Shown piece by piece: positions 3,899 through 38,995 of a stretch of 44,515 bases of DNA. Within the stretch, counting starts at the first letter, position 1; the number at the start of each line of letters is the position of its first letter. The notes under the pieces are model-generated. The model was given only the letters and a program-made list of their open reading frames with translations. It did not search any database and was not told the origin of the DNA. Made by a program: the position numbers and the translations under genes. Where the stretch lies: the UHGV virus genome UHGV-1858859. One strand, written 5' to 3'. Origin of the DNA: a virus.

Positions 3899-6136
3899 AT
3901 GTCAAGCGGATGCGGTGACGTTTTAAGCCTGGCGGATTTACAAACCGCCAAGAAGCACCAGATTTTCGAAGCTGAGGTTATCACCGGTAAATCCGGCGGT
4001 GTTGCTACGGGTGCTGATATCGATTACGCGACAAATCAGGTTACTGGGCAGACACAGAAGACGTCACCCGCCGTGTTGCGTGATGCTGGTTTTTCTCCTG
4101 TATCGTGGGATTTCTCCTCTGGCGGTACGTTAACAGTTAATGACCGCGACAAAGTGGTGTACGACCCTGTAAGTAAAACGTGGTACTCGTACGCGGGGAC
4201 GTTACCGGTTACAGTTCCCGCGAGTTTTAATCCCGTAGGTAACGCTAACTGGAGGCCACAGACCGATCCTAATTTACGTGGTGAGTTATCCATCATTGAA
4301 AACATAGCTGAGCTTATGTCTAAAACGCCAAACCCAGAACTCACGTACACCGTGAAAGGCTATGCCCCCGGTACGACTTTCGGCGGGGGCATTTTCTACT
4401 GGGACGCCGCCCTCCCTAAGTCACAACACAACGGCATCACTGTATTTAGTCCAACGGTGCCATGGGACGGAACCTACACCACTCTCGCGACCTTCTTAGC
4501 TGGCACAGGGGAAACCACCCCATCCGGCAGCGGATGCTGGGTCCGTATGCAGAACAGCCGCGACATGCTCGTTTCTTGGGGCGGCGTTGACATCACAGGG
4601 ACGAACGTTGCGGACGCCGCTGTAACCGCTGTTATTAAGTATGCTAATACGGTCAAGCGTTCTGTTAGATTTGACTCTGGTGCAAATATTAAATGGGGCT
4701 TCTCTACCCTTGTCCAGCACTTTGACAAGTTCAATCTTAATGCGCAATGTTCTGTTGTTCTGGAGAATATCAGCGGGATTAAGGTTTACGCGGAGAATGA
4801 CGTTGAGTTCAACACTGACCACCCTACTTATGCGGAGCGTGTTGTCTTTCGCCTTAAAAACTGTAGCGAAGTGGAATTCTCTGGATTCAACTTCAACTCC
4901 AATTTCACCGACTATTCGACGACGACATCGGACACTACGTACAAGCCCCAAGAATGGTGGCAGGGCTTCACAGCCGAAGGTTGTTCTAATCTAGAAATCA
5001 CTAAGCATCACGTTAATGCGTGCCAAGTATTTGTAAGGGCTGATTGTACAAACTTAGCAGCAAACCTTCATAACATAAATATTCATGTTACAGATAACAT
5101 GTTTAAGTATGTAACGAATTACTGCGTTATTTCCAGAAACATAAATCTGGTTGAATTCAGCCGCAACAAGGTTTCATTTAATGGGCGTAACTGGCACACA
5201 TTCGGAGAGGCGTTCGCCCCGACGACAGGCTCCCTTAATATAATTGCCAAAGATAACATTTTTACTAACCAAATTGCGCAGCAGTCGTGTATTACGTCAA
5301 CTCTGGGCGCTTCATCTGTAACTATTCAAGGTAATTATTGCCGTCGACATTATGGTATTTTTGTCGAACTCGGTAGTTCGAGCAATGTGTTAATTTCAGG
5401 TAACACATCAATAAGTACTGGCGAACGTGCGGATACACCACACATTCTTATGGTTGGAGAGGTAGACGGCAACACGGCGGGAGGTCTTTCAAACGTCAAC
5501 ATTACTGCAAACTATTTTGAGGGTGGTGGTTTTGCCGTTCAAGAATACAATACCGGGCCTGCATTGCGCAGGGCTTTCAGTATAACTAACAACCATATGG
5601 TTGACTGCAAGTTACCCGCCATAACCAACCAATCTTACATTGGCGTGACTGTTCGCGGTAACTATATGGAAGCACCCACTAACTTTCCTGATTTAGCTAT
5701 CGCAGGACAGAGGCCTGTTATAGACGGTAACATGTTTGTTGGTGTTAGGGTGCGTGCAAGAGATTTAGGGTATAGCGTAATAGCTCCTAAGGTAACCAAC
5801 AATGTATGGAGAGCAAACTCCCTGGGGGAATCATATCCAGCACTTATCGACTATACCGAATTCACCGCATTAGTGGCGGATGGCAACGACTCAACAGCAG
5901 CGGCGTACACGGACTTCATTGTCCACCCTTCAAATTGTAATAATGCAGGGTTCCGTAGGGTAGGCCCAACTGAAGGTTTTAGCGTTAGCCCTTCCGCTCG
6001 TTTCGGCGCTAAATTGACGGACGCGCATGTGGGCGATTTTGTGGCTAATTCATCTCCTACGGCATCGGGTACTTATGCGTGGGTATGTGTTAATCAAACA
6101 ACAAAAACATTCAGTTCTATCGCATTGAGTGCATAA
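3899..6136 (+). CDS. tailspike protein (right-handed parallel beta-helix, probable polysaccharide depolymerase)
   Basis: 745 aa; N-terminal particle-binding-like region followed by repetitive beta-helix-like segments (e.g. NIHVTDNMF, ISGNTSIS); last gene of the tail module, followed by a terminator. Confidence 0.65.
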   Translation: MSSGCGDVLSLADLQTAKKHQIFEAEVITGKSGGVATGADIDYATNQVTGQTQKTSPAVLRDAGFSPVSWDFSSGGTLTVNDRDKVVYDPVSKTWYSYAGTLPVTVPASFNPVGNANWRPQTDPNLRGELSIIENIAELMSKTPNPELTYTVKGYAPGTTFGGGIFYWDAALPKSQHNGITVFSPTVPWDGTYTTLATFLAGTGETTPSGSGCWVRMQNSRDMLVSWGGVDITGTNVADAAVTAVIKYANTVKRSVRFDSGANIKWGFSTLVQHFDKFNLNAQCSVVLENISGIKVYAENDVEFNTDHPTYAERVVFRLKNCSEVEFSGFNFNSNFTDYSTTTSDTTYKPQEWWQGFTAEGCSNLEITKHHVNACQVFVRADCTNLAANLHNINIHVTDNMFKYVTNYCVISRNINLVEFSRNKVSFNGRNWHTFGEAFAPTTGSLNIIAKDNIFTNQIAQQSCITSTLGASSVTIQGNYCRRHYGIFVELGSSSNVLISGNTSISTGERADTPHILMVGEVDGNTAGGLSNVNITANYFEGGGFAVQEYNTGPALRRAFSITNNHMVDCKLPAITNQSYIGVTVRGNYMEAPTNFPDLAIAGQRPVIDGNMFVGVRVRARDLGYSVIAPKVTNNVWRANSLGESYPALIDYTEFTALVADGNDSTAAAYTDFIVHPSNCNNAGFRRVGPTEGFSVSPSARFGAKLTDAHVGDFVANSSPTASGTYAWVCVNQTTKTFSSIALSA

Positions 6137-6140
6137 AACT

Positions 6141-6166
6141 AAGGCCCCAAACGGGGCCTTTTCTCT
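6141..6166 (+). terminator. rho-independent terminator (hairpin also usable from the minus strand)
   Basis: aaggcccc-aaac-ggggcctt stem-loop followed by ttctc; 5 nt after the tailspike stop. Confidence 0.6.
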
Positions 6167-6207
6167 ACTCTTCCGATAACTTCTCCAGTACAAACGCCAG
6201 TTGCGCA

Positions 6208-6702
6208 TTAGCGGCGTCTCTTGACGCCGTGGTTTTCATGAAATCCGTAAGCAGCTTCTGCGGCTTTACGAACGGCAACCGCCTCTTCTAATGCGCAAAA
6301 GAATCCAAGGTTAATGTGTTCGCCGTCAACACGAATAGTTGCGCGCCACTTCGATACATCCTTTCGCCAATACACGCCGGTGTATCCCGACTTATTATTA
6401 GTTAATAGCGCCCTGTTTCTGGAGTTACCTTTATTATTCGTTTTCCTTAAATTCTCTATCCTATCGTCCGCTCTGTTGTGATTGATGTGGTCTATTTGGT
6501 CGCCTTTATTTAATTTATCGGTTGGATTATGCATCTCCCATACGATATGACTAACTTTGTACTTTTTACCCAAACAGCTAACATATCGGTATCCGTTTTT
6601 GTTCACAGAACCTGCAACTATCCCCTCGGGCTTGTTCTTGCAAGGCTTATTAACCCAGTAAAGAACTCCTGAATCGTACCGGAAAACACTATACCAATTC
6701 AT
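6208..6702 (-). CDS. HNH homing endonuclease with AP2 DNA-binding domain
   Basis: HNH motif GDQIDHINHNRADDRIENLR, then AP2-like segment SGYTGVYWRKDVSKWRATIRVDGEHINLGFF. Confidence 0.8.
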   Translation of the reverse strand: MNWYSVFRYDSGVLYWVNKPCKNKPEGIVAGSVNKNGYRYVSCLGKKYKVSHIVWEMHNPTDKLNKGDQIDHINHNRADDRIENLRKTNNKGNSRNRALLTNNKSGYTGVYWRKDVSKWRATIRVDGEHINLGFFCALEEAVAVRKAAEAAYGFHENHGVKRRR

Positions 6703-6842
6703 TCCACTCCACCCGTTATGATTTCAACAAATATCTGTATCTGAGAGTTTGCACTGTCGAGTTGCTGCCGTAGGCGTAGAACCTCTTCTTCAAGTTCCTT
6801 GATACGTTTTTGCAATGCAGGAATCGGGGCTATGATGTTCAT
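6699..6842 (-). CDS. small coiled-coil protein (47 aa)
   Basis: ATG overlaps the helicase stop (ATGA) and its own stop overlaps the HNH start (ATGA); below the ORF-track length cutoff. Confidence 0.3.
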   Translation of the reverse strand: MNIIAPIPALQKRIKELEEEVLRLRQQLDSANSQIQIFVEIITGGVE

Positions 6843-8269
6843 TTCTTACCTCGTCTCTTCATATAATTAAGTAGTTCGTCCTGTACAGACCTTTTCTCGT
6901 CCGTACGCGCTGCGACAACTTCATCTAGAGTATCTCGGGCTATTATTTGATAAATGAATACAGACCGTTTGTACCCAGACTGCATCTGCCTCACCGGACC
7001 TATGCGCTCGATAACCTGCAAATAGTGTTCCAGGTTCCACCCCTGACTCATAAAGGCCATGTGATGTCCGCCGTGTTGTAGCGACAGCCCGTGGCCCGCG
7101 GAGGCTGGATGTATCAGGAGCATAGGTATTTCCCCGCGGTTCCACGCTTCCATCTGCTTATTACCCTTAGCTCCTTTGGCGAACGCCTGTGCCTGCGGGA
7201 ATCGCTTAAGAATTCGCTCCAGTTCGTGCTTGAACTGATAGGCTACCAGTAACGGAGCACCCTGCAACTCCTCAACAATGGACTCGAGCGCATCCAGTTT
7301 CGTGTCGTGCACTTTCTCCCAGTCTTTCGTTGCTTCTCCGTCCGGTCCCGATACATACACGGCACCAGATGCAATCTGCAAACACTTCGACGTCTTCGCC
7401 GCGGCGTTAGCAGCTTCAACTTCTCCGCTCTCCAGTTCCGCGAATAACTTCTCCTCCATATCGATGTACGCCTGACGTGCTTTCTTCGGCAGGTCAATTT
7501 CAACCGGAACAATAATCGGCGCTTCACACCCGAACCACTCAGCGGCGTCAATCGTGAGACTAATGTCCTTCATCTTCTGGTGAATCTCATTATCCGCCCC
7601 CGGGCGCGCATGATACTCTCGCGCCATCGCCGACTTACCTTTCTGGACAGAGTTAAACCATCGGTCGGTGAATGCCGTGTATGAAGAACCGAGGCGCTCG
7701 CCAGCGTCGATAAACCAGTTCTGGCCCCACAGGTCTTTGAGGCCATTTGGTGATGGCGTACCGGTAAGGTTGATGAAACGCTTAACCTTACCGAATGCCA
7801 CTTTACTAAGCGCCTTTGCCCGCTTGCTGCCACCTGAACGGCTACGGAAAGATTTCAGTTTCGTGCTTTCATCGGCAACAATAACCGTAAAAGGCCAGTC
7901 GTCTTTGCCGTAGTAGTCAATCAGCCACTCGATAACTTCGTAGTTAGTGCACACCACGTTAGCATCTGACTCCAGCGCCGCGATGCGGCGCTTCTCTGAA
8001 CCGGTCGCATCTACGACGCGCAGACACGGGAATCCCCACTTAGTTTGTTCTGATGGCCATGTGCCGGACGCAACACGCAGCGGGGCGAGGATTAACACTC
8101 GGTCGTCATCATTAAGTTGGCCGTTGCGGAACAGTCGGTTAAGCACCCACATCGTTGCGGAACTTTTGCCCGCGCCCATCGAAGCCCAAATATTACAGCG
8201 CGGATGTTGCAACATGAACGAAGTCATGAGCTTCTGGTACTCCCTGCGGGTAAATTTAGACATAATCAA
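6839..8269 (-). CDS. SNF2/DEAD-like superfamily 2 helicase
   Basis: Walker A MGAGKSS, DExx-type motif VADESTKLK, motif III LTGTP, C-terminal helicase motif HPASAGHGLSLQ. Confidence 0.8.
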   Translation of the reverse strand: MIMSKFTRREYQKLMTSFMLQHPRCNIWASMGAGKSSATMWVLNRLFRNGQLNDDDRVLILAPLRVASGTWPSEQTKWGFPCLRVVDATGSEKRRIAALESDANVVCTNYEVIEWLIDYYGKDDWPFTVIVADESTKLKSFRSRSGGSKRAKALSKVAFGKVKRFINLTGTPSPNGLKDLWGQNWFIDAGERLGSSYTAFTDRWFNSVQKGKSAMAREYHARPGADNEIHQKMKDISLTIDAAEWFGCEAPIIVPVEIDLPKKARQAYIDMEEKLFAELESGEVEAANAAAKTSKCLQIASGAVYVSGPDGEATKDWEKVHDTKLDALESIVEELQGAPLLVAYQFKHELERILKRFPQAQAFAKGAKGNKQMEAWNRGEIPMLLIHPASAGHGLSLQHGGHHMAFMSQGWNLEHYLQVIERIGPVRQMQSGYKRSVFIYQIIARDTLDEVVAARTDEKRSVQDELLNYMKRRGKK

Positions 8270-8471: not shown

Positions 8472-8777
8472 TTATATTGTTGGTGTATGACTACTATAGT
8501 AGTTCGCTATTAGGTCGTCAACCTGTTTGAACGACCCGACGATAAAAACATTTGCACCACGTTTACGCATCCGCTCGTGCTCCCGTAGCTGGTGCGGGTC
8601 TGGCTTCGTGTTTTCGTCTTTCTTAACCTCGACAAACCAGACGATGCCGCCGGGGAGAATCACCAGCAGGTCGGGAGCGCCGGAACGTCCTTCGTAGGAA
8701 AGTTTACGAACGAGGCCGCCGAGGGCCTCGAATCGCTCTTTTGCATATTTCTGTATTTTGCCCTCAGGCGTACTCAT
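8472..8777 (-). CDS. VRR-NUC domain nuclease
   Basis: GAPDLLVILPGG ... VEVK pattern typical of VRR-NUC (PD-(D/E)XK fold). Confidence 0.65.
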   Translation of the reverse strand: MSTPEGKIQKYAKERFEALGGLVRKLSYEGRSGAPDLLVILPGGIVWFVEVKKDENTKPDPHQLREHERMRKRGANVFIVGSFKQVDDLIANYYSSHTPTI

Positions 8778-8858: not shown

Positions 8859-8990
8859 TCATTCCAGCACCCACAGATAAATCGCGATGAACATACCTAA
8901 TACGGCGACCATCATGCCGTATTGGCCCTCGTGACAGTAGACACCGGCGGCAAATCCCGCCAGTACCGCGATAATCAGTTTACTTGGCAT
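8859..8990 (-). CDS. small hydrophobic protein (43 aa)
   Basis: MPSKLIIAVLAGFAAGVYCHEGQYGMMVAVLGMFIAIYLWVLE; its ATG overlaps the polymerase stop codon. Confidence 0.3.
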   Translation of the reverse strand: MPSKLIIAVLAGFAAGVYCHEGQYGMMVAVLGMFIAIYLWVLE

Positions 8991-11900
8991 AACGCTTCAT
9001 CTCCGCACCTTCCGCGACAAGAGGGAAGCCTTCTGCCCACTCAGGCAACGCGCACATTAATTTTTCCAGCTCAGGCACCGTGTAATCCGGCGTATCTGGA
9101 GTTTCACATACCAGTTCATCGTGTACCGAAAGCACGATGGGATACCCGCCACCCTCAACATTAATCATCGCATATGCGAGTAAATCACGGCACAGCGCCT
9201 GAACAATGTTTTCGCAGGCTTTGCCGCCGTGTGTGTACAGGGTAGTCCATTGGCGGGTTAACTGGTTTTCACCTTGGTACTTGATTCGCACATTCGTGTT
9301 TACCCGTCCGTCTTCGTCTGTTTCTTTTGTCACGCTAACGCCGATTCCTGGATACGAGAGGATACGGCCCGACGGCAACTCCATACACAACCACCAACCG
9401 GGAACCTTCCTGCCGGATGAATCGAATTCTACCGTACGCCATATGCGGATAGCCCTTTCCCTGTTCCTGCGCAAGTGTGCTCCCGCCCAAAATTCACGAC
9501 CAGGATTGCGAACAGCGGCTAAAATTCCGTCTTTAAGGTCGCGCCAGAACGCTACTGTTTCCGGGTGTGACTCACGCCACATACGCTTGATTGCGTCACA
9601 GGTACGCCATACTTTCTTATCAAGAATGTACGATGGTCTGTCATCCTTTTCACCAGGATGCGGTGGTCGCTTGGCTTCCTGAATACGCGCCCATTCATAA
9701 CCACGTGCAGTAGCCGCCCATATATGATCAGGGAAAGTACCGTCCATTGTTTTTGCCATCTCGATAAGGTCAAGACCTAAGTTTTTGGCGAACGTAACGA
9801 ACGCTCCGACGCCGCCCTCGTAGCCGAGACCGAGCTCGCAGTTATGCGCCACAAGAAAGCCAGAGTCGGAAGCTATGAGAAAACGGTTGCCGTCGTCCAC
9901 ATCAATCAGGTCGTAAACCGGCTCGCAGTAGGTTAATTTCCCGTTCAAGCTCAGCAATGCGGGCAACGGCAGCATCGTACTTTCGTTGAAGCTCAGGTAT
10001 CCGCCGTCTGTTACGGCAGTTTTCCGAACGGCTGACAAACCGAATGTTTCCAGGCTCGTAGTTACCGTCTGTGTCGATTCTGTCCATTTCGAGGTTTGGG
10101 TCATCCCAGCCTTCCAGAGTTTGAACATATCTAAGAAACGACCTTTTATCGGTCCTCCACTGGTCACACACCGTGATACCCCTTGCCCCATAGTTTTTAT
10201 AACCCTTATCTCTGGGGCTTGTTGTTCGCACGATTGCCGCCGACAACCGGTTGAGCAATCGCGTTCTGTGCGCGTCATCTGGCATTGCGTCTTCGTAGCA
10301 GAAATATTGTTTACGATATCTTTTTGTCGCTTCAAGCGCGCAGCGGTTGCATTGAGTGGTTTTACCCGCTCTGACATTGTCATAATAGACCCGCCCTGGC
10401 ATCTCCCCACAATCACATTGGGCGAGTAGTTGTCTTTGGCCTTGTCGTTTAGATAGCTCACGTAGGATAACCAGGCGACCCCACCTCTCCCCAGGGCGAG
10501 GCCCATCATATATTTGTTTGAAACGAGTTGCTTTGCCGCCTTCCAGGAATGCGTCAAGATTTTGTGGTCTTCGGTCATTAGAACCCCGTCCACATTTATC
10601 ACTGGTTTCCACCCCATAAGGTGCGCGCCTTTTGTATTCACCCATTTTTCGCCACTCCATACTTTATCTGTTGGTGTAACCGCCATAATATCCTTAAATC
10701 CGCCATCGGTCAAAACTTGGGTATGACGGTGAAGGCAAGCCTTACCTATCTGGCGTAAGTCTTTACGTTCTTTCTTAATATCGTCGGGGTCCATGCCAAA
10801 CATCTTGCCCGCGGTTACACAGTAAATATCCAGTCCGGCGCGGAACGTATCGAGCGCGGTTTCTTCACCTGCCAGCCAAGCAAGCCCGCGGCCTTCAACG
10901 TTAGAGTAATCGGCGACGACAAACTTACGCCCGGCTTCCGGTATTATGCAGCTACGCACAGTAGATGCCGTTAGTTTGGCTACATCAAAACGGCGATGGG
11001 CGCGGCCCTTAAGTAACGCCGAAATGCCTTTATCCAGCTCATAATCGTGATAGTAACCGCGTGCCAGGTTCTGCGGCTGGAAGCCTTTACCTGCCCATCG
11101 CAGAGTACGTTTTGCCCCACCGTACTGCAAGCAACCGCGACGGCGGTCGTCCGAAGAGCGGCCCAGCAGCAGCGGGTTATATTTCGTTGACGCGGTGGAC
11201 GCGGCCCCGAGGCGCATTTCGATAATTGTGCGTGCGTCGTCCGGTAAATCATCGTCCGCAAGCAAGTCATTCAGTGTCGACTTCTGCGCGTTGTGAATAC
11301 GGTGTGCAGGCGCAAGTTCACGCAGAATCGGAAGAAAGTCCTTACCAGTAAGCGAGCCGCCGTATTTGCGTTGGGCTTCCTCCTGTAACTGCGCTTTGTG
11401 TTTCTCCACGGCTTCAATAGCGGCTTCCGCCAGTGCAACGTCAACCTTAAACCCGCGGTCGTTGATTAACTGGTCCAGCTCCAGTACACGGTCTTCGAAC
11501 TCAGAGTTACCCCAACGCGGCAGCTTATGGAAGACTTCACGCATCGCAGTGATGTCGCTCACGGCGTACTTGATGAACAGCGCCCACTCGTCCGGGTGTG
11601 TTTCTGCGGTGTAGCGGCGGATTTTGTAATTCTTCGGTGTCGGTTTAGAGAAACGCTGAATCAGCGCCTTGCCGCGTTTATCTTTTGCGTTGTCTGCTGA
11701 CACGCCCAGCACTTCGCACAACGCATCGAGGGAACCCGGCAGCGCGTGACGAAACGCCCAAATCATCGTATCAATGGTGTTGCCTACAGGAATATCAAAG
11801 TCCCAGCAGTGTTTCATGATGAGCCTATCGAACATTGAGCCGTTGTGCCATACCATCTTAATACGACTGTTCGGCTTAACCAGGCGGCGCAGTGCGCGGT

Positions 11901-12078
11901 GCAAATCACCCGGCATGTCGCTGCCGTCGGTGCAATCCCATACCCGCACAGGCTCGTCGTCAAAAGCATATGTGCAGATAAGCACTTCGGTAGTCGGGTG
12001 TTCGGCGTAAGCGTAGGAGCCGACTTTCTTCAAATCGGCTTCGGAGAATGTTTCAAAGTCCAGGTATAAGTAGCTCAT
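8980..12078 (-). CDS. family A DNA polymerase (3'-5' exonuclease + polymerase) interrupted by an in-frame intein
   Basis: Exo I motif LDFETFS near the N-terminus, motif A DYSNVEGRGLAWLAGE, motif B split as RQIGKA / CELGLGYEGG around the intein, motif C LSVHDELV. Start set at ATG 12078 (MSYLYLDFETF) with an AAGGA RBS rather than the track start at 12132. Confidence 0.85.
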   Translation of the reverse strand: MSYLYLDFETFSEADLKKVGSYAYAEHPTTEVLICTYAFDDEPVRVWDCTDGSDMPGDLHRALRRLVKPNSRIKMVWHNGSMFDRLIMKHCWDFDIPVGNTIDTMIWAFRHALPGSLDALCEVLGVSADNAKDKRGKALIQRFSKPTPKNYKIRRYTAETHPDEWALFIKYAVSDITAMREVFHKLPRWGNSEFEDRVLELDQLINDRGFKVDVALAEAAIEAVEKHKAQLQEEAQRKYGGSLTGKDFLPILRELAPAHRIHNAQKSTLNDLLADDDLPDDARTIIEMRLGAASTASTKYNPLLLGRSSDDRRRGCLQYGGAKRTLRWAGKGFQPQNLARGYYHDYELDKGISALLKGRAHRRFDVAKLTASTVRSCIIPEAGRKFVVADYSNVEGRGLAWLAGEETALDTFRAGLDIYCVTAGKMFGMDPDDIKKERKDLRQIGKACLHRHTQVLTDGGFKDIMAVTPTDKVWSGEKWVNTKGAHLMGWKPVINVDGVLMTEDHKILTHSWKAAKQLVSNKYMMGLALGRGGVAWLSYVSYLNDKAKDNYSPNVIVGRCQGGSIMTMSERVKPLNATAARLKRQKDIVNNISATKTQCQMTRTERDCSTGCRRQSCEQQAPEIRVIKTMGQGVSRCVTSGGPIKGRFLDMFKLWKAGMTQTSKWTESTQTVTTSLETFGLSAVRKTAVTDGGYLSFNESTMLPLPALLSLNGKLTYCEPVYDLIDVDDGNRFLIASDSGFLVAHNCELGLGYEGGVGAFVTFAKNLGLDLIEMAKTMDGTFPDHIWAATARGYEWARIQEAKRPPHPGEKDDRPSYILDKKVWRTCDAIKRMWRESHPETVAFWRDLKDGILAAVRNPGREFWAGAHLRRNRERAIRIWRTVEFDSSGRKVPGWWLCMELPSGRILSYPGIGVSVTKETDEDGRVNTNVRIKYQGENQLTRQWTTLYTHGGKACENIVQALCRDLLAYAMINVEGGGYPIVLSVHDELVCETPDTPDYTVPELEKLMCALPEWAEGFPLVAEGAEMKRYAK
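9841..10737 (-). mobile_element. intein (299 codons) inserted in DNA polymerase motif B
   Basis: Block A CLHRHTQVLTDGG right after motif B Lys-Ala; block B GVLMTEDHKILT; blocks F/G VYDLIDVDDGNRFLIASDSGFLVAHN followed by Cys +1. Removing it restores RQIGKACELGLGYEGG. Confidence 0.7.
9902..10660 (-). CDS. HNH endonuclease encoded inside the intein in a different reading frame
   Basis: 252-codon ORF in another frame of the same strand; contains KGYKNYGARGITVCDQW ... EMDRIDTDGNYEPGNIRFVSRSEN, resembling free-standing phage HNH endonucleases. True start uncertain. Confidence 0.6.
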   Translation of the reverse strand: MEWRKMGEYKRRAPYGVETSDKCGRGSNDRRPQNLDAFLEGGKATRFKQIYDGPRPGERWGRLVILRELSKRQGQRQLLAQCDCGEMPGRVYYDNVRAGKTTQCNRCALEATKRYRKQYFCYEDAMPDDAHRTRLLNRLSAAIVRTTSPRDKGYKNYGARGITVCDQWRTDKRSFLRYVQTLEGWDDPNLEMDRIDTDGNYEPGNIRFVSRSENCRNRRRIPELQRKYDAAVARIAELEREINLLRAGLRPD

Positions 12079-12230
12079 TTCTTTTTCCTTAAATCCAGTG
12101 CCTTCGTTTCGCTGAGTCTTATTTTCATACAATCACGACAAATCCACACATGCCTGTACCCGGCGCGGTACTCATCCGCGTACCACGGAAGCGGTTTCAT
12201 ATATCGGTATACGTGCTTACAGAAAAACAT
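12075..12230 (-). CDS. small Cys-containing protein (51 aa)
   Basis: MFFCKHVYRYMKPLPWYADEYRAGYRHVWICRDCMKI...; stop overlaps the polymerase ATG (ATGA); below track cutoff. Confidence 0.3.
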   Translation of the reverse strand: MFFCKHVYRYMKPLPWYADEYRAGYRHVWICRDCMKIRLSETKALDLRKKK

Positions 12231-12250
12231 GATTTTCGACCCTTAGTAAA

Positions 12251-12270
12251 AAGGCCCAATGAAGGGCCTT
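12251..12270 (-). terminator. stem-loop downstream of the SSB-like gene, weak T-run
   Basis: aaggccc-aatgaa-gggcctt hairpin about 20 nt after the stop at 12290; only ttt follows on the minus strand, so probably partial termination. Confidence 0.4.
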
Positions 12271-12289
12271 AGTTAAATTGATTCAGATA

Positions 12290-12916
12290 TTAACGGCGGC
12301 GACGTTCGCGGCGCGGTGCTTCATCTTCTTCGTCGTCTTCCAGGTCATTGACGCTTGCGGCGACTTTAGAACCACCAAACGCTTTACCTTCGCCAACATA
12401 TTTAATTGCCAGCAGGTTAACGCCTAGAACTTTATATTTCTGGCTGAACCAGATTTCAACGCTTACATTAGCTACGCAGCCACTGTAAACCTGTTCACCT
12501 TCAATCTGTTCGCCGTCTACGTTGAAGTCCTGCTCTACCTGAGTCTCACCTTTTTTAGATGTTACAATCAGTGGCTGTTTCTGTGCCTTAGCTTTGAAGT
12601 AGAAGCCTTCCGGGAAGTCTTCAAACGGATTGTCGCGTTCAGCAATATCTTTAATTGCACATTTATCCATGTGCTTACCTTCGCCGTAGTTGGACTTCAT
12701 CCACTTCTCGGCAGCGGCTGCGCCTAACGCTTCTTCAACTACAGCGTAGACAGTGTCGTAGAGCGCGTCGATTTGCGCGTGGTCAGACGGCAGGATTATA
12801 GTCGCGCTGTACTGGCCTTTAGTGGTGGAGCCATCATCGTTTTCACGGTCTTTTTCGCGTTCGAATACGTTAACCCAGGCAGTGTTTACTTTACGCAGAT
12901 TCAGCTTAATACCCAT
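12290..12916 (-). CDS. ssDNA-binding-like protein with acidic C-terminal tail
   Basis: 208 aa ending in DLEDDEEDE...RRERRRR; sits between a Cas4-like nuclease and the polymerase, as in a conserved phage replication cassette; own promoter upstream. Confidence 0.5.
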   Translation of the reverse strand: MGIKLNLRKVNTAWVNVFEREKDRENDDGSTTKGQYSATIILPSDHAQIDALYDTVYAVVEEALGAAAAEKWMKSNYGEGKHMDKCAIKDIAERDNPFEDFPEGFYFKAKAQKQPLIVTSKKGETQVEQDFNVDGEQIEGEQVYSGCVANVSVEIWFSQKYKVLGVNLLAIKYVGEGKAFGGSKVAASVNDLEDDEEDEAPRRERRRR

Positions 12917-12971: not shown

Positions 12972-13000
12972 AACTATAATAGCCAACTATTCAGGTGTCA
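12972..13000 (-). promoter_or_regulatory. sigma70-like promoter TTGACA-N17-TATAGT with embedded palindrome
   Basis: Minus-strand reading ttgaca cctgaatagttggctat tatagt; contains ATAATAG-ccaa-CTATTCA (plus strand 12975-12992). Confidence 0.6.
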
Positions 13001-13005
13001 ACACT

Positions 13006-15404: not shown

Positions 15405-15435
15405 TTGTTTCTCTCCTCTCGTTTGGTATGGGCTA

Positions 15436-15464
15436 ACTATAATAGTGAACTATTCACATGTCAA
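15436..15464 (-). promoter_or_regulatory. sigma70-like promoter TTGACA-N17-TATAGT with embedded palindrome
   Basis: Minus-strand reading ttgaca tgtgaatagttcactat tatagt; contains ATAATAG-tgaa-CTATTCA (plus strand 15439-15456). Confidence 0.6.
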
Positions 15465-15468: not shown

Positions 15469-15497
15469 CTTTTCTAAAATAATTAATATGGTACTAT
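15469..15497 (+). promoter_or_regulatory. candidate rightward extended -10 promoter with degenerate motif copy
   Basis: tggTACTAT (TG-n-TACTAT) at 15489-15497 with a poor -35 (cttttc); CTATTCA half-site at 15494-15500; about 30 nt upstream of the HTH gene. Confidence 0.35.
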
Positions 15498-15528
15498 TCA
15501 CATATCAACTAACTAAGGAGTAATTGTC

Positions 15529-15744
15529 ATGCAACCATCTGAACTAGGCATCCGTGTAGAAAAACGCCGTAAAGAACTCGGCATCTCCCAGCGCCGTCTG
15601 GCGGTGCTGACCGGGGTTTCCCAGGGCGCAATTAACCAGCTGGCACTTGGGGTAACCCAGGACGTCCGCCCGGCAACGCTGTTTAAACTGGCGGAAGTGC
15701 TGGAGGTAGACGCCAAGTGGCTGGCGCTAGGTGAAGGGGCTTAA
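15529..15744 (+). CDS. XRE/Cro-type helix-turn-helix transcriptional regulator
   Basis: 71 aa; HTH signature ISQRRLAVLTGVSQGAINQLALG; AAGGAG RBS; divergent from the leftward operon. Confidence 0.8.
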   Translation: MQPSELGIRVEKRRKELGISQRRLAVLTGVSQGAINQLALGVTQDVRPATLFKLAEVLEVDAKWLALGEGA

Positions 15745-15760
15745 TGCCCCTTTCTTTTTA
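15734..15760 (+). terminator. rho-independent terminator
   Basis: aaggggc-ttaat-gcccctt hairpin spanning the stop codon, followed by tttcttttt. Confidence 0.6.
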
Positions 15761-18002: not shown

Positions 18003-18059
18003 GTTGTATTTCCTTCAGCAAGTAATTTGGCCTCGGCGCTCTAACGTCGGGGCTTTCTT

Positions 18060-18521: not shown

Positions 18522-18892
18522 ACATAATTGCACCTATTGACATTATGAAAATCTTCGTTTAAGGTGCTTCTATATCTTAGTTACTTTGATTCCTGTTCAC
18601 CTTGTAAGAATGCTTAACCCGTGCGTTAAGCAAAGGGTTAAGCAGCAGGCTTACTGAACACGAGAATTATTGTAACTTTCCTTCCTAAGTATCTCCGGTT
18701 GCCCTGGGCAAGCTCTATTCTCATCGGCGGCATATCTCTTAAGTATCTGATTTTCTTAATGTGCCGTAGATTCGCAACCGTAAAAATGTAACGATTATTG
18801 GGCAGGCTTAGGGCCTGCCCTTTAGTTACCAAGTAATAAGAATAAAGGCACAACTCTACCTGAAGAATCACAACGGCAACGTAACTATTTTC

Positions 18893-18921
18893 TTGCACAC
18901 CCCAACATAATAGGATACTAT
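18893..18921 (+). promoter_or_regulatory. sigma70-like promoter TTGCAC-N17-TACTAT with embedded palindrome
   Basis: ttgcac accccaacataatagga tactat; motif ATAATAG-gata-CTATTCA at 18907-18924; a 36-bp block is repeated as an exact inverted copy at 40388-40423. Confidence 0.65.
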
Positions 18922-18946
18922 TCACTTATCGAAACGAGACAGATGA

Positions 18947-20455: not shown

Positions 20456-20462
20456 AATTTAC

Positions 20463-20491
20463 TTGCACACTTGGATAGAATAGGCTACTAT
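20463..20491 (+). promoter_or_regulatory. sigma70-like promoter TTGCAC-N17-TACTAT with motif copy
   Basis: ttgcac acttggatagaataggc tactat; CTATTCA at 20488-20494; followed by leader cgaacgagaggagagacagaag-ATG. Confidence 0.65.
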
Positions 20492-20522
20492 TCATTTACA
20501 CGAACGAGAGGAGAGACAGAAG

Positions 20523-28721: not shown

Positions 28722-28744
28722 AGCCCCGAAAGGGGCTTTCTTAT
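28722..28744 (+). terminator. stem-loop / partial terminator after the portal gene
   Basis: agcccc-gaaa-ggggct hairpin followed by ttcttat. Confidence 0.45.
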
Positions 28745-30521: not shown

Positions 30522-30980
30522 ATGGGCTTTTTTAAAGTAACTGATGTGCCGTCGCGTCGCGTAGTCCAGTACGCCCGTGTATCCGGTTCTGGTGAGAACG
30601 TAACCTACGTTGAAGATGAAAGTGTACTAGGTACACCTGTAGACGAGATGCCGTATGCGGACAAGACCGGTATCGCACTCTCTGCTGCTGGTATGCTTTA
30701 TGAGATTCCGTATCTGGCAGATGCTGGTGATGTGTATTTCTCTGTGCAACCGAAAGACACCGAGCTGGTCGACGGTAGCGCCACCATCACTGTCGAAGTT
30801 AAGGCGGGTAAAGCGCCGTATGTACTGACCTGGTACAAAGACGGGAAGGAAGTGGTGAACGCCCCGGAAGAGGCTCTGTCTCTGACTGTTAATGCGGCTG
30901 GTGAATACTTCGTTAAAGTTACTGATGCCGATGGTGCGGAGGCCGTAAGCAAAGCGGCGAAGGTCTCTAAACCAGGATGA
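30522..30980 (+). CDS. Ig-like domain protein (possible capsid decoration)
   Basis: PYVLTWYKDGKEV ... EYFVKVTDADG pattern of an Ig-like fold. Confidence 0.45.
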   Translation: MGFFKVTDVPSRRVVQYARVSGSGENVTYVEDESVLGTPVDEMPYADKTGIALSAAGMLYEIPYLADAGDVYFSVQPKDTELVDGSATITVEVKAGKAPYVLTWYKDGKEVVNAPEEALSLTVNAAGEYFVKVTDADGAEAVSKAAKVSKPG

Positions 30981-30983
30981 TAA

Positions 30984-31014
30984 AAGGCCCCATAATGGGG
31001 CCTTAGTTTTATTT
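30984..31014. terminator. bidirectional rho-independent terminator
   Basis: aaggcccc-ataat-ggggcctt hairpin with T-runs on both strands (agttttattt on plus, ttttatcatc on minus); lies between convergent genes. Confidence 0.6.
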
Positions 31015-31530
31015 AAATCGCGCAGGCATTAACACCATAAAGGCCGTGTTTGAAAATTGTATTTTGCATCCTCTGGTTTGGTCCTGGAAATCGAAACGAG
31101 CAATTTCATTTTTGTATGCCTTAGAAATCTTGTACGCGTCTGCCAAATAGCGCAGAGTGAACCCTATACTGTCGACAACACCCGGTGTGATGTGCGCCAC
31201 GCGTCTCCAGTCAGGAAAGTTTCCTTCTACAACATCTACCGGAAGTGTACATATAAGCGCACGATTATCGTCATAGAAAGATACACTGCCGTTGTCGTGG
31301 TTTACCTCTGCGTAGTTAAATTTAGAAGGCTCTCTCCCTTTGATGTCTATGAGAGTCCCTTTCTCAACGTTGGTCTTCACATTGTCGCAGAACAATCTAT
31401 GACCGTCCGTAGACACTATCAATCCTTCAGGGTCTATGTAAAAAGCGTTCAAATAGTAGCGAACATCATTTTTAGCCCTGCATATTTTCGCCCCTACATA
31501 CGCAGGGAAAGTAATTACTGTAGTAACCAT
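31009..31530 (-). CDS. truncated DnaN (DNA polymerase III beta sliding clamp)-like protein
   Basis: DVRYYLNAFYIDPEGLIVSTDGHRLF, VVEGNFPDWRRV and C-terminal AFMVLMPARF match E. coli DnaN segments (DVRYYLNGMLFE...ATDGHRLAV, VDGRFPDYRRV, AYVVMPMRL) recalled from memory; only 173 aa against 366; AGGAG RBS and own promoter. Confidence 0.6.
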   Translation of the reverse strand: MVTTVITFPAYVGAKICRAKNDVRYYLNAFYIDPEGLIVSTDGHRLFCDNVKTNVEKGTLIDIKGREPSKFNYAEVNHDNGSVSFYDDNRALICTLPVDVVEGNFPDWRRVAHITPGVVDSIGFTLRYLADAYKISKAYKNEIARFDFQDQTRGCKIQFSNTAFMVLMPARFK

Positions 31531-31556
31531 TTCTCATCTCCTGTTTAAGTTAACTG

Positions 31557-31585
31557 AATAGTACCCTATTATGTTGGTGCGCGCA
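31557..31585 (-). promoter_or_regulatory. sigma70-like promoter TTGCGC-N17-TACTAT with embedded palindrome
   Basis: Minus-strand reading ttgcgc gcaccaacataataggg tactat, with ATAATAG-ggta-CTATTCA. Confidence 0.6.
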
Positions 31586-31861
31586 AACTATTTATTTACG
31601 TATTCCAGTTATTCCACTCAATTGTAAACGTTGGAATAAACTATTCGAATAGTTGACTTTTCACTGAAAATATGATAAGCTCCACCTGAGCTTGTGAAGT
31701 ATGAGCAAGCGACCGCGGCGCGGGCAGGTAACGGAGCGGGACGTAAGTCCTGAGTGTAGTTACGCTGACGCGTTCGGAAGGGCCATACTCTATTGCTTGT
31801 GTAAAAAGTAACTGGTTTACTGAGATTACGCCGTTTCTATGTTTAAATGATAAGGACTAGC

Positions 31862-31888
31862 GCCCCGCTTTAAGGCGGGGCTTTACTT
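31862..31888 (+). terminator. stem-loop with short T-run just upstream of the Rz-like gene
   Basis: gccccgc-tttaag-gcggggc followed by tttactt; function unclear (terminator or attenuator-like). Confidence 0.35.
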
Positions 31889-31905
31889 ATTGAGAAAGGG
31901 GAAAC

Positions 31906-34252: not shown

Positions 34253-34281
34253 GAGAGGGACTTCGGTCCCTCTTTTCATTT
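34253..34281 (+). terminator. rho-independent terminator after the major capsid gene
   Basis: gagaggga-cttcg-gtccctct hairpin followed by tttcattt. Confidence 0.5.
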
Positions 34282-35691: not shown

Positions 35692-35693
35692 AA

Positions 35694-37567: not shown

Positions 37568-37569
37568 AT

Positions 37570-38736
37570 ATGGCTACAACTCCTTTTAAGGGCGCGAATA
37601 CAGCGCAATTCTATGTGGCGGAAGTGACCCCGGGCGTAACCCCAGACAACCCTGTCTGGTCGCCGCTGCGCAATACGGGCGGTGTTCCTGCGGTAACCCG
37701 CGATGCGCTGACCTCCAACGAACTCGACGGCAGCCGAGAAACTACATCCATCCGAACCGGCAACAAACAGGTTAGCGGGGAGTACGCCATCGAACTTAGC
37801 TCCCGTAGCCAGGATGATTTCCTCGCGGGTGCTATGACTTCTACGTGGCAAGCTGGGGTAGAGATTACGGGTGCAGAAATTACGGTCGCTCCAGCAGGTA
37901 AAACATTCACCCGCGCTGCTGGTAGCTTCATTACTGACGGTGTAGAAGTTGGCGACCTGATTGCGTTCACCGGCTTAACCAGCGACAACGCAAAACCGTT
38001 TATCGTGACCGAGGTTTCTGCTCTTGTAGTTACGGGTTCTGGCATTCAACACACGCTGACAGCAGAGACTGTAACCACCGGCGCTAAAACAGGCGATAAA
38101 TTGGAAACCGGTAACGCATGTAAGACGTTCTCCATCCTGACATGGTTCAAAGGACAGTGCGGGAACCCTGACGCGTACATGCTGACCAAAGGCGTGGAAA
38201 TCTCCGGTTTCACCATTGAACAGGCCGTAAACGCGATGGTGACAGGCAGCTTCCCGTTCATCGGTCTGAGTCAGGAAATTCTTTCTGCACGGCCAGCAGG
38301 TTCTGATTTCTCTCAGGTGACGTTTACCGATGAGCCGTTCTCATCCGTAGATGTGTCTGTGTTCGACGGTTCTACGCCGTTGCGTTGCGATACTCTGACC
38401 ATCACCAACGACAACGGTGCTTCCGCACAGTTCGAACTCGGCAACAGTAGTGTTGCGTTCGTGGAACGTGGCCGCGCAGCTAACACATTCTCCATCTCTG
38501 GTAAGCTGTACGACATGGCGATGATTCAGAAGTTTATCAACGAACAGCAGGTAGAGATTAACTCTATTCTGGCGGGGGTAAACGGGGCTATGTCTTTCAG
38601 CCTGAAACGTGCCGAGTTGACCGCAGTTACGCCAGAAATATCTGGCCCAGAATCAATCACCCAGAGCATAGAGGGACAGTCCACCGGCAATCAGTACCAG
38701 TCATCTATCGTAATTCAACGTATCACCTACGCATAA
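37570..38736 (+). CDS. major tail protein
   Basis: 388 aa, Thr/Gly/Val-rich, followed by a strong terminator and located before the chaperone and tape measure genes. Confidence 0.6.
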   Translation: MATTPFKGANTAQFYVAEVTPGVTPDNPVWSPLRNTGGVPAVTRDALTSNELDGSRETTSIRTGNKQVSGEYAIELSSRSQDDFLAGAMTSTWQAGVEITGAEITVAPAGKTFTRAAGSFITDGVEVGDLIAFTGLTSDNAKPFIVTEVSALVVTGSGIQHTLTAETVTTGAKTGDKLETGNACKTFSILTWFKGQCGNPDAYMLTKGVEISGFTIEQAVNAMVTGSFPFIGLSQEILSARPAGSDFSQVTFTDEPFSSVDVSVFDGSTPLRCDTLTITNDNGASAQFELGNSSVAFVERGRAANTFSISGKLYDMAMIQKFINEQQVEINSILAGVNGAMSFSLKRAELTAVTPEISGPESITQSIEGQSTGNQYQSSIVIQRITYA

Positions 38737-38740
38737 AACT

Positions 38741-38766
38741 AAGGCCCCTTTCGGGGCCTTTTTCTT
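38741..38766. terminator. rho-independent terminator (near-identical copy of the one at 6141)
   Basis: aaggcccc-tttc-ggggcctt followed by tttctt; also terminates the convergent minus-strand cassette. Confidence 0.6.
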
Positions 38767-38995
38767 ACTCATCAATATTACTTCGGTACTCCCGTAACTT
38801 CTCCAGACTTTCTATTGCTTCCGCTAAGTCGGTTCCGGTGTCCTTGTGCCCGCGAAGGCCCATACACAGAAGTTTCTTCAACGCGTGCTGTAGTGCCGGG
38901 TCGCGGATGTCGAAGGCGCGTAGCACATCATAAACGTCTACTGTCATTGTGCTGCCGTGAGTATTTGTCATTGTGCGGTTGTATTTTGAAGTCAT
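38765..38995 (-). CDS. hypothetical protein
   Basis: 76-aa ORF, last gene of the minus-strand cassette. Confidence 0.45.
   Translation of the reverse strand: MTSKYNRTMTNTHGSTMTVDVYDVLRAFDIRDPALQHALKKLLCMGLRGHKDTGTDLAEAIESLEKLREYRSNIDE

Follow-up and report, generated by a model that had tools for sequence, protein, structure and literature searches.

Results

Genome and features

The window, by which we mean the whole 44,515-nt stretch of viral DNA that was analysed, matches Kagunavirus genomes along its length and, on sequence, is a complete Kagunavirus genome (Guernseyvirinae). At three junctions where late (plus-strand) and early (minus-strand) genes converge, the 28-nt stop-to-stop spacer is filled by a copy of a short cassette (A, B and C), which is the sole non-coding sequence there. 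Copy D, the only one not at a convergent junction, comes after the minus-strand SSB gene. The features considered are as follows.

3899..6136, plus strand: tailspike gene; weak Tail_spike_N match; annotated as tailspike in relatives
6134..6167, no strand assigned: cassette A, with TAA (6134-6136), AACT, hairpin, TTCT and CTA (6165-6167, stop of a small minus-strand ORF); stop-to-stop spacer 28 nt
6141-6160: cassette A hairpin, AAGGCCCC-AAAC-GGGGCCTT
6165..6233, minus strand: 3' part of a conserved 45-aa ORF, C-terminus ...LAFVLEKLSEE*; contains TAACTTCTCCAG (6177-6188)
12244..12279, minus strand: copy D, weaker, AACTAAGGCCC-TTCATT-GGGCCTTTTT; 7-bp stem at 12251-12270
30978..31011, no strand assigned: cassette C, inverted motif, minus strand TAA-AACTAAGGCCCC-ATTAT-GGGGCCTTTTA-TCA; hairpin 30984-31004; spacer 28 nt
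31551-31586: twin promoter-like repeat, heading a one-gene island that ends at cassette C
37570..38736, plus strand: tail tube (major tail) gene; Pfam Phage_tube_2, E 6e-34; conserved; stop fused to cassette B
38734..38767, no strand assigned: cassette B, with the tail tube TAA, AACT, hairpin, TTTC and TTA (38765-38767, stop of minus-strand ORF 38765-38995); spacer 28 nt
38741-38760: cassette B hairpin, AAGGCCCC-TTTC-GGGGCCTT
38765..40353, minus strand: gene island in the tail operon, with a promoter repeat at its start and cassette B at its end; holds a 76-aa ORF, a metallophosphoesterase gene (38992-40122) and small ORFs
40388..40427, minus strand: promoter-like repeat (TTGCAC, 17-nt spacer, TACTAT), heading the island that ends at cassette B

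Across the genus, the N-terminal anchor of the tailspike is conserved as far as about 4092-4295, and the exchangeable receptor-binding module of the gene runs from 4296 (or 4093) to 6133, where the stop is fused to cassette A. The 45-aa minus-strand ORF beyond it is split in the window by an HNH endonuclease gene (6208-6702), with its 5' part at 6763-6851. Cassette C is flanked by an Ig-like head decoration gene (30522-30980, plus strand) and a beta-clamp-like ORF (31009-31530, minus strand), and copy D lies after the SSB gene (12290-12916, minus strand; domain match of the product to Enc34_ssDNA-bd) and before the DNA polymerase gene (8980-12132, minus strand). The consensus of the promoter-like repeat agrees with that in PMC9825357.

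A repeated cassette

The pattern GCATAAAACTAAGGCCCC-N4-GGGGCCTTTT is exact at 6131-6162 and 38731-38762, where the sole difference is in three of the four loop bases (AAAC/TTTC), and a repeat-family search of the window gives the A/B repeat a length of 43 nt at 84% identity. With up to three mismatches allowed, the pattern has two sites only in the window (6131 and 38731) and was matched in none of 100 dinucleotide shuffles, which bears out the near-identical repeat described in an earlier note on this DNA. The related hairpins that it placed at 30984-31004 and 12251-12270 are real as well: the core AACTAAGGCCC occurs four times against 0.57 expected, a count reached in 0 of 100 shuffles, and these two occurrences are the inverted ones, with the same motif on the opposite strand. 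That both A and B open with GCA TAA, the final codon and stop of ORFs 3899-6136 and 37570-38736, can be read directly. The shared GCA is, judged by the relatives, coincidental, since their many tailspike ends have only the TAA stop in common.

The repeat extends in degenerate form past the stems. The window has just two copies of the 12-mer TAACTTCTCCAG, at 6177-6188 and 38795-38806, respectively 17 and 35 nt beyond the stems of A and B. As this 12-mer stands only next to A and B, and the small ORFs adjoining them are weakly similar to each other, the two copies probably share an origin, and would descend from an old duplication of the terminator together with the 3' end of a small minus-strand gene. 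A crossover between A and B would delete 32.6 kb.

Conservation in relatives

Conservation was assessed at helicase-anchored and tail-tube-anchored loci, samples picked independently of the motif. At the former (helicase identity at least 89%, with enough flank), AAGGCCCC-N4/5-GGGGCCTT is carried by 47 of 48, and the one exception has AAAAGGGCC-GAAA-GGCCCTTTT at the same place. The tail-tube-anchored close relatives have the hairpin in 32/34 and one-base variants in 2/34. More distant relatives have variant or compensated stems, with changed letters and pairing kept (AAAGGGGC/GCCCCTTT, AAGGGCC/GGCCCTT). Pairing is seen in 96% of cells among site-B orthologues, and two-sided changes at four of eight pairs, figures drawn from a hairpin-finder set in which pairing is partly built in. 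By these comparisons the cassette is retained throughout the Guernseyvirinae. Its loops at A and B are site-specific rather than genome-specific, and no homogenisation of A and B was seen within genomes.

Predicted terminators

All four copies fold as GC-rich hairpins that lie between an A-tract and a T-tract. The RNA folding that the earlier note had proposed predicts stable hairpins on both strands, at -13 to -22 kcal/mol (z-scores -2.1 to -5.7), with -18.3 (plus) and -18.9 (minus) for cassette A, -15.4 (plus) and -22.0 (minus) for cassette B, and -13.7 for copy D on the minus strand. A simple terminator scan flags A (minus), B (plus and minus) and C (plus). In the GenBank record of the Jerseyvirus Ent1, the hairpin orthologous to site B is a putative rho-independent terminator on both strands, and Kagunavirus genome papers give predicted terminators. 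The anatomy, in the form of predicted folds, A- and T-tracts, convergent 3' ends, two-sided stem changes and the Ent1 annotation, supports the claim that the repeats are terminators. We consider it likely that they form one family of Rho-independent terminators, two-way at A, B and C, whose role in the tailspike swap is that of a passive border. Termination, its two directions and any recombination role are what we infer for the cassettes from sequence comparison and predicted folds.

A stop codon, a short A-rich tract, an 8-bp GC-rich palindromic stem, a loop of 4-5 nt, a T-rich tract and an opposing stop make up a design that would stop transcription from both directions at A, B and C. On the plus strand the T-tract of A is broken (TTTTCTCT), and on the minus strand the tails are AGTTTTAT, so termination efficiency may be partial. 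Copy D resembles a terminator or attenuator acting in one direction within the early operon, where it would end or attenuate the SSB transcript.

Being a short palindrome in several copies, the element might instead bind a protein, act as a signal for packaging or replication, or be a small mobile repeat like REP or MITE elements. We find it most improbable that the cassette is one of these instead of a terminator. The copies always lie between stops at orthologous gene ends and are never scattered, and they have no target-site duplications or terminal repeats. The kept pairing of changed stems in distant relatives points to a structure and not to a sequence-specific site, and A- and T-tracts on either side are a usual mark of intrinsic terminators. 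An Rfam search of the cassette gave no family match.

Homology boundaries

At site A, the aligned columns have a mean pairwise identity of 0.27 up to -9, 0.72-0.94 over TAAAACT and 0.90 downstream, with 26 unrelated tailspike 3'-end classes upstream against one conserved class downstream; homology starts at the tailspike stop codon. Compared with genomes that have other tailspikes, the window loses homology at 4092/4295 and regains it at 6134-6136. At site B, identity falls from 0.88 upstream to 0.35 from +9 on, the terminal gene of the minus-strand island falls into five classes between genomes, and the variable genes start at the far edge of the cassette. The comparison of breakpoints in relatives, also proposed in the earlier note, thus finds them coinciding with the cassette, which serves, as far as these alignments indicate, as the constant right-hand limit of tailspike exchange. 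Because it is the sole non-coding DNA of the junction and is kept throughout the subfamily, the cassette is the first conserved sequence beside exchangeable genes, which would be the receptor-binding module at A and the variable minus-strand genes at B and C.

The cassette has moved with the tailspike receptor-binding domain (RBD) into the Skatevirus-cluster phage Bas81. There, TAAAACTAAGGCCCCGAAAGGGGCCTTTTCTCTA plus CTTCTGATA stand after an RBD 82-84% identical to Kagunavirus tailspikes, with 14 extra flanking bases in common and a remnant of the Kagunavirus small ORF. Gamaleyavirus Bas96 and Bas81 agree at 98.75% identity as far as TAAAACTAAGGCCC, beyond which the two are unrelated; the cassette is left in Bas96 as a half-hairpin scar, followed by another hairpin (CCCCTCC...GGAGGGG). 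Transfer tracts end 11, about 42 (Bas81 against Bas76) and about 110-135 nt (locus L017) past the stop, and the tailspike tract of the window, ~99% identical to Ivi and Hrm2, continues past the hairpin to an end point somewhere between 6221 and 6838.

It is very unlikely, in our estimate, that the design of A-tract, GGCCCC stem, tetraloop and T-tract was reached repeatedly, with no link by common descent or exchange. The differing, site-specific loops of A and B would fit such convergence, as would the presence of the 20-nt core AAGGCCCC-N4-GGGGCCTT in numerous IMG/VR contigs that are unrelated and of every size, among the matches listed. However, the shared flanks (AACT/TAAAACT and TTTTCT(C/T)TAC) exceed the needs of the fold, the 12-mer is confined to A and B, the extended cassette is found almost only on Guernseyvirinae-sized contigs of 41-45 kb, and Bas81 carries both additional flanking bases and the small-ORF remnant. 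Other predicted terminators of the same genome have unrelated hairpins, which argues that this sequence is not required for function. For the extended cassette (TAAAACTAAGGCCCC...GGGGCCTTTTCT), convergence is largely refuted by these comparisons. Since the bare core is common in unrelated viral contigs among the matches listed, part of the likeness of A, B, C and D could be convergence on good terminator design rather than common descent.

Discussion

The earlier note had also suggested that the repeats act as recombination points for module exchange. Breakpoints do coincide with them, and in transfers between families the cassette moves whole or as a half; a crossover inside the hairpin is not supported, the tract ends being scattered, and there is no sign of A and B recombining with each other, loops and flanks being site-specific. 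An active joint, at which the palindromic hairpin itself promotes exchange and cassettes are joined at the stem in either orientation, is in our view unlikely. It could work by hairpin or cruciform extrusion with template switching in replication, by breaks from HNH homing endonucleases that repeatedly adjoin the hairpin, or by short-homology annealing through a phage SSB/annealing protein and a PD-(D/E)XK exonuclease; genes for an Enc34/gp2.5-like SSB and a DUF2800/PDDEXK nuclease are present in the phage. HNH genes lie directly at the TAA|AACT junction (loci L002-L004 and L155), between two hairpin copies (L165) and, in the window, 48 nt from cassette A. The Bas81/Bas96 junction falls inside the left arm of the hairpin, locus L172 joins two TAAAACTAAGGCCCC halves into a chimeric 34-nt perfect palindrome, and the motif at site B has opposite orientations in Jerseyvirus and Kagunavirus. 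Against these observations stand the transfers that end further past the stop and the window's own tract, which passes the hairpin. Within the genus, all DNA to the right of the hairpin is homologous, so a boundary is to be expected there in any case.

In all four groups with near-identical flanks and different loops, the loop is an exact reverse-complement flip (GAAA to TTTC, AAAC to GTTT or GGAA to TTCC, in either direction), so strand-switch or inversion events do occur in these stems, and such frequent flips count in favour of the active joint. In plastid non-coding DNA, hairpin loops between inverted repeats are well known to undergo small inversions; the flips here differ in lying in predicted phage terminators.

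As a predicted ordinary two-way transcription stop signal, the 40-bp repeat would belong to an already known kind of element. It shares with bidirectional Rho-independent terminators a GC-rich hairpin between an A-tract and a T-tract, directly after the stops of two convergent genes, with one palindrome serving both strands (as the Ent1 orthologue is annotated), and differs in nothing essential. More notable are the extreme compaction, with 28 nt from stop to stop at three junctions, and the near-same sequence at four places in one 44.5-kb genome.

The modular theory of phage evolution is said to go back to Botstein, morons in tailed phages to Hendrix and colleagues, and boundary sequences in lambdoid phages to Clark et al. 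2001. The B and C islands resemble morons in that each has a promoter copy, gene(s) and a terminator copy within a late operon, but the main early operons here draw on these promoter and terminator families too, and the islands therefore look like regular early units, not foreign additions. As at mosaic-junction linkers, variable genes adjoin a short conserved sequence, although crossover inside the linker is only a candidate for this cassette.

PMC10408124 (Virol J 2023) describes a conserved, non-coding, terminator-like 20-nt sequence, "motif three", 0-19 nt past the stop of the RBP gene, together with a second conserved motif where the N-terminal anchor ends; both were proposed to aid cross-genus RBD exchange, an idea similar to the active joint. 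In that paper, motif three is listed for Gamaleya-, Kutter- and Justusliebigviruses and single Kayfuna- and Nouzillyviruses, a list from which Kagunavirus is absent. Here, our left limit (about aa 65-132, overlapping the weak Tail_spike_N match) and right limit (the cassette) play the same parts, and cross-genus exchange is seen in the RBD common to Kagunavirus, Bas81 and Bas96. The cassette is likened to motif three by its position and terminator-like form.

Because recent tract ends vary beyond the hairpin and A and B do not homogenise each other, the link of the cassette to recombination is probably passive, and not that of an active hotspot. With all 28 nt between the two genes taken up by the cassette, any viable junction has to fall in or near it; in-gene junctions would be lost by selection, which biases the survivors to the spacer, and the coincidence of breakpoints is therefore partly forced. 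Together with the conserved genes beyond, the cassette would form a patch where homologous exchange can resolve, and it would travel with the module when that moves into other groups of phages.

Genome organization and copies of the cassette

Escherichia phages of the genus Kagunavirus, subfamily Guernseyvirinae, align with the window along its length, and its size of 44.5 kb is about that of the complete relatives. The plus strand carries the late structural genes and the minus strand the replication and early genes, with two small minus-strand islands embedded in the structural region. The four copies of the hairpin cassette (A to D) and the genes around them are:

3899-6136, plus strand: tailspike ORF, annotated as tailspike in Ivi, fEg-Eco19 and fFiEco02, with a weak Pfam Tail_spike_N match
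6137-6164, spacer with copy A: between the tailspike gene (plus) and the end of the main minus-strand operon (small ORF, HNH gene, helicase)
6208-6702, minus strand: HNH endonuclease gene (Pfam HNH_3; flanks 6136-6233 and 6763-6851), which splits a conserved 45-aa minus-strand ORF beside cassette A
12251-12270, minus strand: copy D, after the SSB gene (12290-12916, minus; Pfam Enc34_ssDNA-bd) and before the DNA polymerase gene on the same strand
30981-31008, spacer with copy C: between the Ig-like head decoration gene (30522-30980, plus) and a beta-clamp-like ORF (31009-31530, minus)
37570-38736, plus strand: tail tube ORF (Pfam Phage_tube_2, E 6e-34)
38737-38764, spacer with copy B: between the tail tube gene (plus) and the minus-strand island 38765-40353
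40388-40427 and 31551-31586, minus strand: sigma-70-like promoter repeats heading the islands that end at B and C

The distance from stop to stop is exactly 28 nt at each of A, B and C, and the cassette is therefore the whole intergenic spacer there. The stem begins 4 nt past the stop at these three sites and 19 nt past it at D. With a promoter repeat at one end and cassette B or C at the other, each island thus consists of a promoter copy, its gene or genes and a predicted terminator copy.

The near-identical 40-bp repeat that the earlier note described at 6131-6170 and 38731-38770 is real. Both 6131-6162 and 38731-38762 read GCATAAAACTAAGGCCCC-NNNN-GGGGCCTTTT and differ solely in the loop (AAAC versus TTTC), while the repeat as a whole reaches 43 nt at 84% identity. 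A search of the window allowing up to three mismatches found no further site, and 100 dinucleotide-preserving shuffles contained no match at all. The note also had both repeats begin at the last Ala codon and stop (GCA TAA) of a structural gene; the positions hold, but the shared GCA is coincidental, because among the tailspike classes only the window's own ends in GCA. The related hairpins at 30984-31004 and 12251-12270 are likewise genuine and carry AACTAAGGCCC on the opposite strand, so that C and D are the same motif on the other strand. In all, AACTAAGGCCC occurs four times (6137 and 38737, plus; 30998 and 12264, minus) against 0.57 expected, a count reached in none of 100 shuffles. Read in motif orientation, A, B and C share the layout TAA-AACT-AAGGCCCC-loop-GGGGCCTT-TT(T).., followed by the reverse stop.

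A predicted bidirectional terminator

In every respect testable here, the cassette is a predicted bidirectional intrinsic terminator. RNA folding, the check proposed for it at the outset, gave the expected hairpin on all eight strands (four sites, both strands), with minimum free energies of -12.9 to -22 kcal/mol in 51-nt windows. The z-scores were -4.3 to -5.7 at B and A (plus) and -3.5 at A (minus), and weaker at C and D; none of 200 shuffles folded as well as A or B. Stems are 7-9 bp long with 5-7 G-C pairs (5 in copy D, 6-7 in A-C). On the motif strand, a U-rich tract lies 3' of the stem, GGGGCCTTTTCTCT in A, GGGGCCTTTTTCTT in B, GGGGCCTTTTATC in C (minus) and GGGCCTTTTTAC in D (minus), the bases after the stem being TTTTCTCT, TTTTTCTT, TTTTATC or TTTTTAC. 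The opposite-strand tail, CCTTAGTTTTAT, is weaker, and the stem there is followed by AGTTTTAT. A simple terminator scan flagged A (minus), B (both strands) and C (plus).

Position agrees with this prediction: the copies stand at the ends of transcription units, after a stop codon, and the minus-strand units have promoter-like repeats at their opposite ends. At A, B and C a plus-strand gene ends on one side and a minus-strand gene on the other, with an A-tract 5' and a T-tract 3' of the stem, which gives either strand a hairpin with a U-tract; copy D is one-way only. The GenBank record of the Jerseyvirus vB_SenS-Ent1 marks the orthologue of site B as a putative rho-independent terminator on both strands, and genome papers on Kagunavirus give lists of predicted terminators but do not discuss them. 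No family reached the gathering score when the whole window was scanned against Rfam. We rejected a REP- or MITE-like mobile repeat, as every relative examined has its copies at the same three or four gene junctions and nowhere else.

Other terminator-like hairpins, unrelated in sequence to the AAGGCCCC family, occur at 28722-28737, 34253-34274, 15733-15753, 18029-18054 and 18800-18820; their places include the 3' sides of the portal and major capsid genes and the convergent regulator/primase junction. Since these predicted terminators have unrelated sequences, the sequence shared by the four copies is unnecessary for terminator function as such.

Conservation in relatives

Relatives were gathered from IMG/VR without using the motif, 68 loci through the helicase protein and 58 through the tail tube protein. 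At site A, the tailspike junction, AAGGCCCC-N4/5-GGGGCCTT was present in 47 of the 48 loci with helicase identity of at least 89% and enough flank, and the sole exception has AAAAGGGCC-GAAA-GGCCCTTTT in the same spot before the same downstream sequence. At site B, past the tail tube gene, the hairpin was found in 32 of 34 close relatives (31 times starting 4 nt past the stop and once past an inserted gene), and the remaining two carry one-base variants. Distant relatives, with 67-79% tail tube identity, have a hairpin in the same place built from other stems: AAAGGGGC/GCCCCTTT, AAGGGCC/GGCCCTT or AAAGGCCCC/GGGGCCTTT. In a stem alignment including them, 96.2% of cells pair, a figure to be read with the caveat that the sequences were collected with a hairpin finder; two-sided changes occur in 4 of 8 pairs, and none of 500 shuffles reached the score. 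Independently of this alignment, nearly every tail tube locus has a hairpin of at least 7 bp within 12 nt of the stop.

A 45-nt query against a phage collection matched 1190 places in 541 records, almost all of them Salmonella and Escherichia phages of Guernseyvirinae. The bare 20-nt core, among the matches listed, is common in unrelated viral contigs; being generic, the core alone is no evidence of relatedness, and only the extended cassette is diagnostic.

Module boundaries at the cassette

Comparison with relatives, which the earlier note had called for, places module boundaries sharply at the cassette, with a step in column identity at the stop codon. Among 32 non-identical Kagunavirus loci, with positions counted from the stem, mean pairwise column identity at site A stays at the random level of 0.27 from -150 to -9, rises to 0.47 at -8 and to 0.72-0.94 over TAAAACT, and is 0.90 over the next 100 nt downstream. 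Here, 26 unrelated classes of tailspike 3' end meet a single downstream class, and most of them have AACTAAGG immediately after the TAA stop. When the window is compared with genomes carrying other tailspikes, homology breaks off at 4295 (fEg-Eco19, fFiEco02) or 4092 (Bas76) and returns at 6134-6136. Site B is the mirror image: identity is 0.88 upstream and 0.35 downstream from +9, and five unrelated downstream genes each have their stop codon against the T-tract. At site C, at least five different minus-strand genes occur on the A-tract side. Thus, at A, B and C alike, a short conserved sequence directly abuts non-homologous alternative genes.

Transfers between phage groups

Bas81 is a 47.6-kb phage that its taxonomy and the BASEL paper assign to the Skatevirus cluster; a weak match in Veterinaerplatzvirus had pointed to Drexlerviridae. 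The receptor-binding domain (RBD) of its tail fibre has 82-84% protein identity to tailspikes of the Kagunaviruses Bas74-76, NTEC3 and others, and the fibre is 93.8% identical to a tail protein of the Gamaleyavirus Bas96. One O16-type RBD is common to Bas74-76, Bas81 and Bas96. Past its stop, Bas81 (locus L213, 3501-3545) reads TAAAACTAAGGCCCCGAAAGGGGCCTTTTCTCTA and then tgCTTCTGATA, which is the Kagunavirus cassette followed by what is left of the small ORF of Kagunavirus; at the nucleotide level, homology to Bas76 runs until about 42 nt past the stop. Bas81 and Bas96 are 98.75% identical over 1766 nt until stop +11, the last match being TAAAACTAAGGCCC, inside the left arm, and Bas96 (locus L327, 3223-3240) retains half a hairpin only, the TAAAACTAAGGCCC scar. 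A 72.9-kb contig (L017) has 73% nucleotide identity to a Bas96 tail gene and, past its tailspike, the cassette with about 110-135 nt of a Guernseyvirinae small ORF. Bas80, a Skatevirus-cluster phage with a different RBD, carries TAAAACTAAGGCCCCGAAAGGGGCATTTT past the tail fibre stop. Two siphovirus groups at least therefore have the cassette as a common border on the right-hand side.

Passive border or recombination hotspot

The earlier note had suggested that the repeats could act as recombination points, for example in swapping the tailspike, as well as terminators. The coincidence with module boundaries stands, but we favour a passive border over an active hotspot, because transfer ends are scattered, one tract runs through the hairpin, a boundary is expected there in any case, selection shapes which junctions are seen, and a published study found no correlation. 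An active hotspot seems unlikely to us. So does its most elaborate form, to which we would give little credence: that the palindromic terminator serves as an orientation-independent cut-and-paste joint within Guernseyvirinae and between Kagunavirus, the Skatevirus cluster and Gamaleyavirus, driven by hairpin-induced template switching and/or HNH homing endonucleases repeatedly lodged against it, the unit of exchange being a gene with half a hairpin.

The Bas96 junction falls inside the stem, which would suit a hotspot, but the ends of the transfers are otherwise scattered: beside the one at stop +11 there are others at about +42, at about +110-135 and between 6221 and 6838, a record of few datable events seen through selection-biased survivors. 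The last of these belongs to the window's own lineage. In a comparison of pairs sharing a tailspike, which was ungapped and disturbed by HNH insertions and offsets and thus yields coarse identities only, the last 400 nt of the window's tailspike match Ivi and Hrm2 at about 99% identity, whereas at the 3' end of the helicase gene identity to these two is 76-77%, against 93% to fFiEco02. The exchange tract therefore crossed the hairpin and ended between 6221 and 6838; with about 90% identity among all genomes, the small ORF next to the hairpin is too uniform for crossovers to be resolved in it. Within the genus, moreover, a boundary at the hairpin is expected wherever crossovers fall, because all sequence to its right is homologous, and junctions inside the flanking genes would be removed by selection. 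A study of RBD-flanking motifs also saw no correlation between the presence of a motif and the number of events (PMC10408124).

Several arrangements around the stem would nevertheless suit a hotspot. Where loops differ between near-identical flanks, they are exact reverse complements in four of four groups at sites A and B (loci L001-L212), as in L001 versus L013 and L015 versus L048: GAAA exchanges with TTTC, AAAC with GTTT and GGAA with TTCC, the 120-nt flanks differing by at most 4 bases and none of the four groups owing its loop difference to point changes, a pattern that points to strand switching in the stem. Locus L172 (about 3096-3130) has a perfect 34-nt palindrome, TAAAACTAAGGCCCC-GAAA-GGGGCCTTAGTTTTA, with both convergent genes, tail tube and a Jerseyvirus-type minus-strand gene, carrying a TAAAACTAAGGCCCC half, and the motif orientation is reversed at Jerseyvirus site B. 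HNH genes recur at the cassette: a 143-aa one in L165 (3664-4230) has a hairpin copy on either side, four genomes (L002-L004, L155) have one exactly at TAA|AACT past the tail tube gene, and in the window the HNH gene and cassette A are 48 nt apart.

A comparison of loops and flanks across genomes gave no evidence that copies A and B of one genome interact. A crossover between them would delete 32.6 kb. Loops are site-specific (A: AAAC in 15 loci, GTTT in 7; B: TTTC in 17, GAAA in 9), so that concerted evolution by gene conversion was rejected, and the flanks are site-specific too. The two copies probably share an old origin. The window has just two occurrences of TAACTTCTCCAG, one 17 nt past stem A and the other 35 nt past stem B. 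Each encodes LEKL close to the C-terminus of the adjacent minus-strand ORF, and the two ORFs show weak similarity to each other (38% over 39 aa, pairwise E 0.001).

Other features of the window

A second repeat family occurs on the minus strand at 8492-8521, 12972-13001, 15435-15464, 15484-15508, 18893-18932, 31551-31586 and 40388-40427, and on the plus strand at 20459-20505. Its members are sigma-70-like promoters (TTGACA/TTGCAC, 17-nt spacer, TATAGT/TACTAT) with an embedded palindrome, GAATAGT-N3-CTATTAT, and match the "phage promoter" consensus of fBC-Eco01, tgAATAGTa-ccTATTat-T (PMC9825357). Because it lies over the -10 region, this palindrome may serve as an operator; one candidate to bind it is the small HTH regulator at 15529-15744. 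About 320 nt at 31587-31905 are non-coding, with a promoter-like site at about 31645-31679 (TTGACT, 17-nt spacer, TG-n-TAAGCT) and a strong hairpin with a T-run at 31862-31881, directly before the spanin gene at 31906; this stretch, for which Rfam gave no match, could be a leader or small RNA. The DNA polymerase ORF (8980-12132, minus) encodes 1050 aa in the window and in fEg-Eco19 and about 733-746 aa in Ivi, Hrm2 and fFiEco02, a difference in length that suggests an insertion of about 300 aa, possibly an intein or endonuclease domain.

Relation to known systems and significance

The cassette resembles, by description, the motif three of PMC10408124: a 20-nt hairpin 4 nt past the tailspike stop here, a 20-nt motif 0-19 nt past the stop of receptor-binding protein genes there. 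That motif is conserved, non-coding and a predicted terminator, was proposed to flank RBDs, and was reported from genera that exclude Kagunavirus (PMC10408124). In its behaviour the cassette also resembles the conserved sequences that form boundaries in mosaic phages. The literature, when searched for bidirectional terminators placed at mosaic junctions, yielded nothing specific. Terminators of this general kind, and the proposal that they mark or aid recombination borders, have nonetheless been published before, and no concept is changed here.

Tailspike swapping determines which hosts Kagunavirus and Jerseyvirus phages infect, and these phages are candidates for therapy and engineering. It is of practical use to have the limits of the exchangeable module, which starts where the N-terminal anchor ends (about codon 65-132) and stops at the stop codon fused to the conserved 28-nt predicted terminator. 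Knowing that the border is common to Skatevirus-cluster phages is useful as well, because RBD swaps can then be designed around junctions that occur in nature and are tolerated. In terms of phage evolution, the cassette provides a clean, well-sampled case of a regulatory element doubling as a mosaic boundary, together with datable cross-family transfers of one O16-type RBD.
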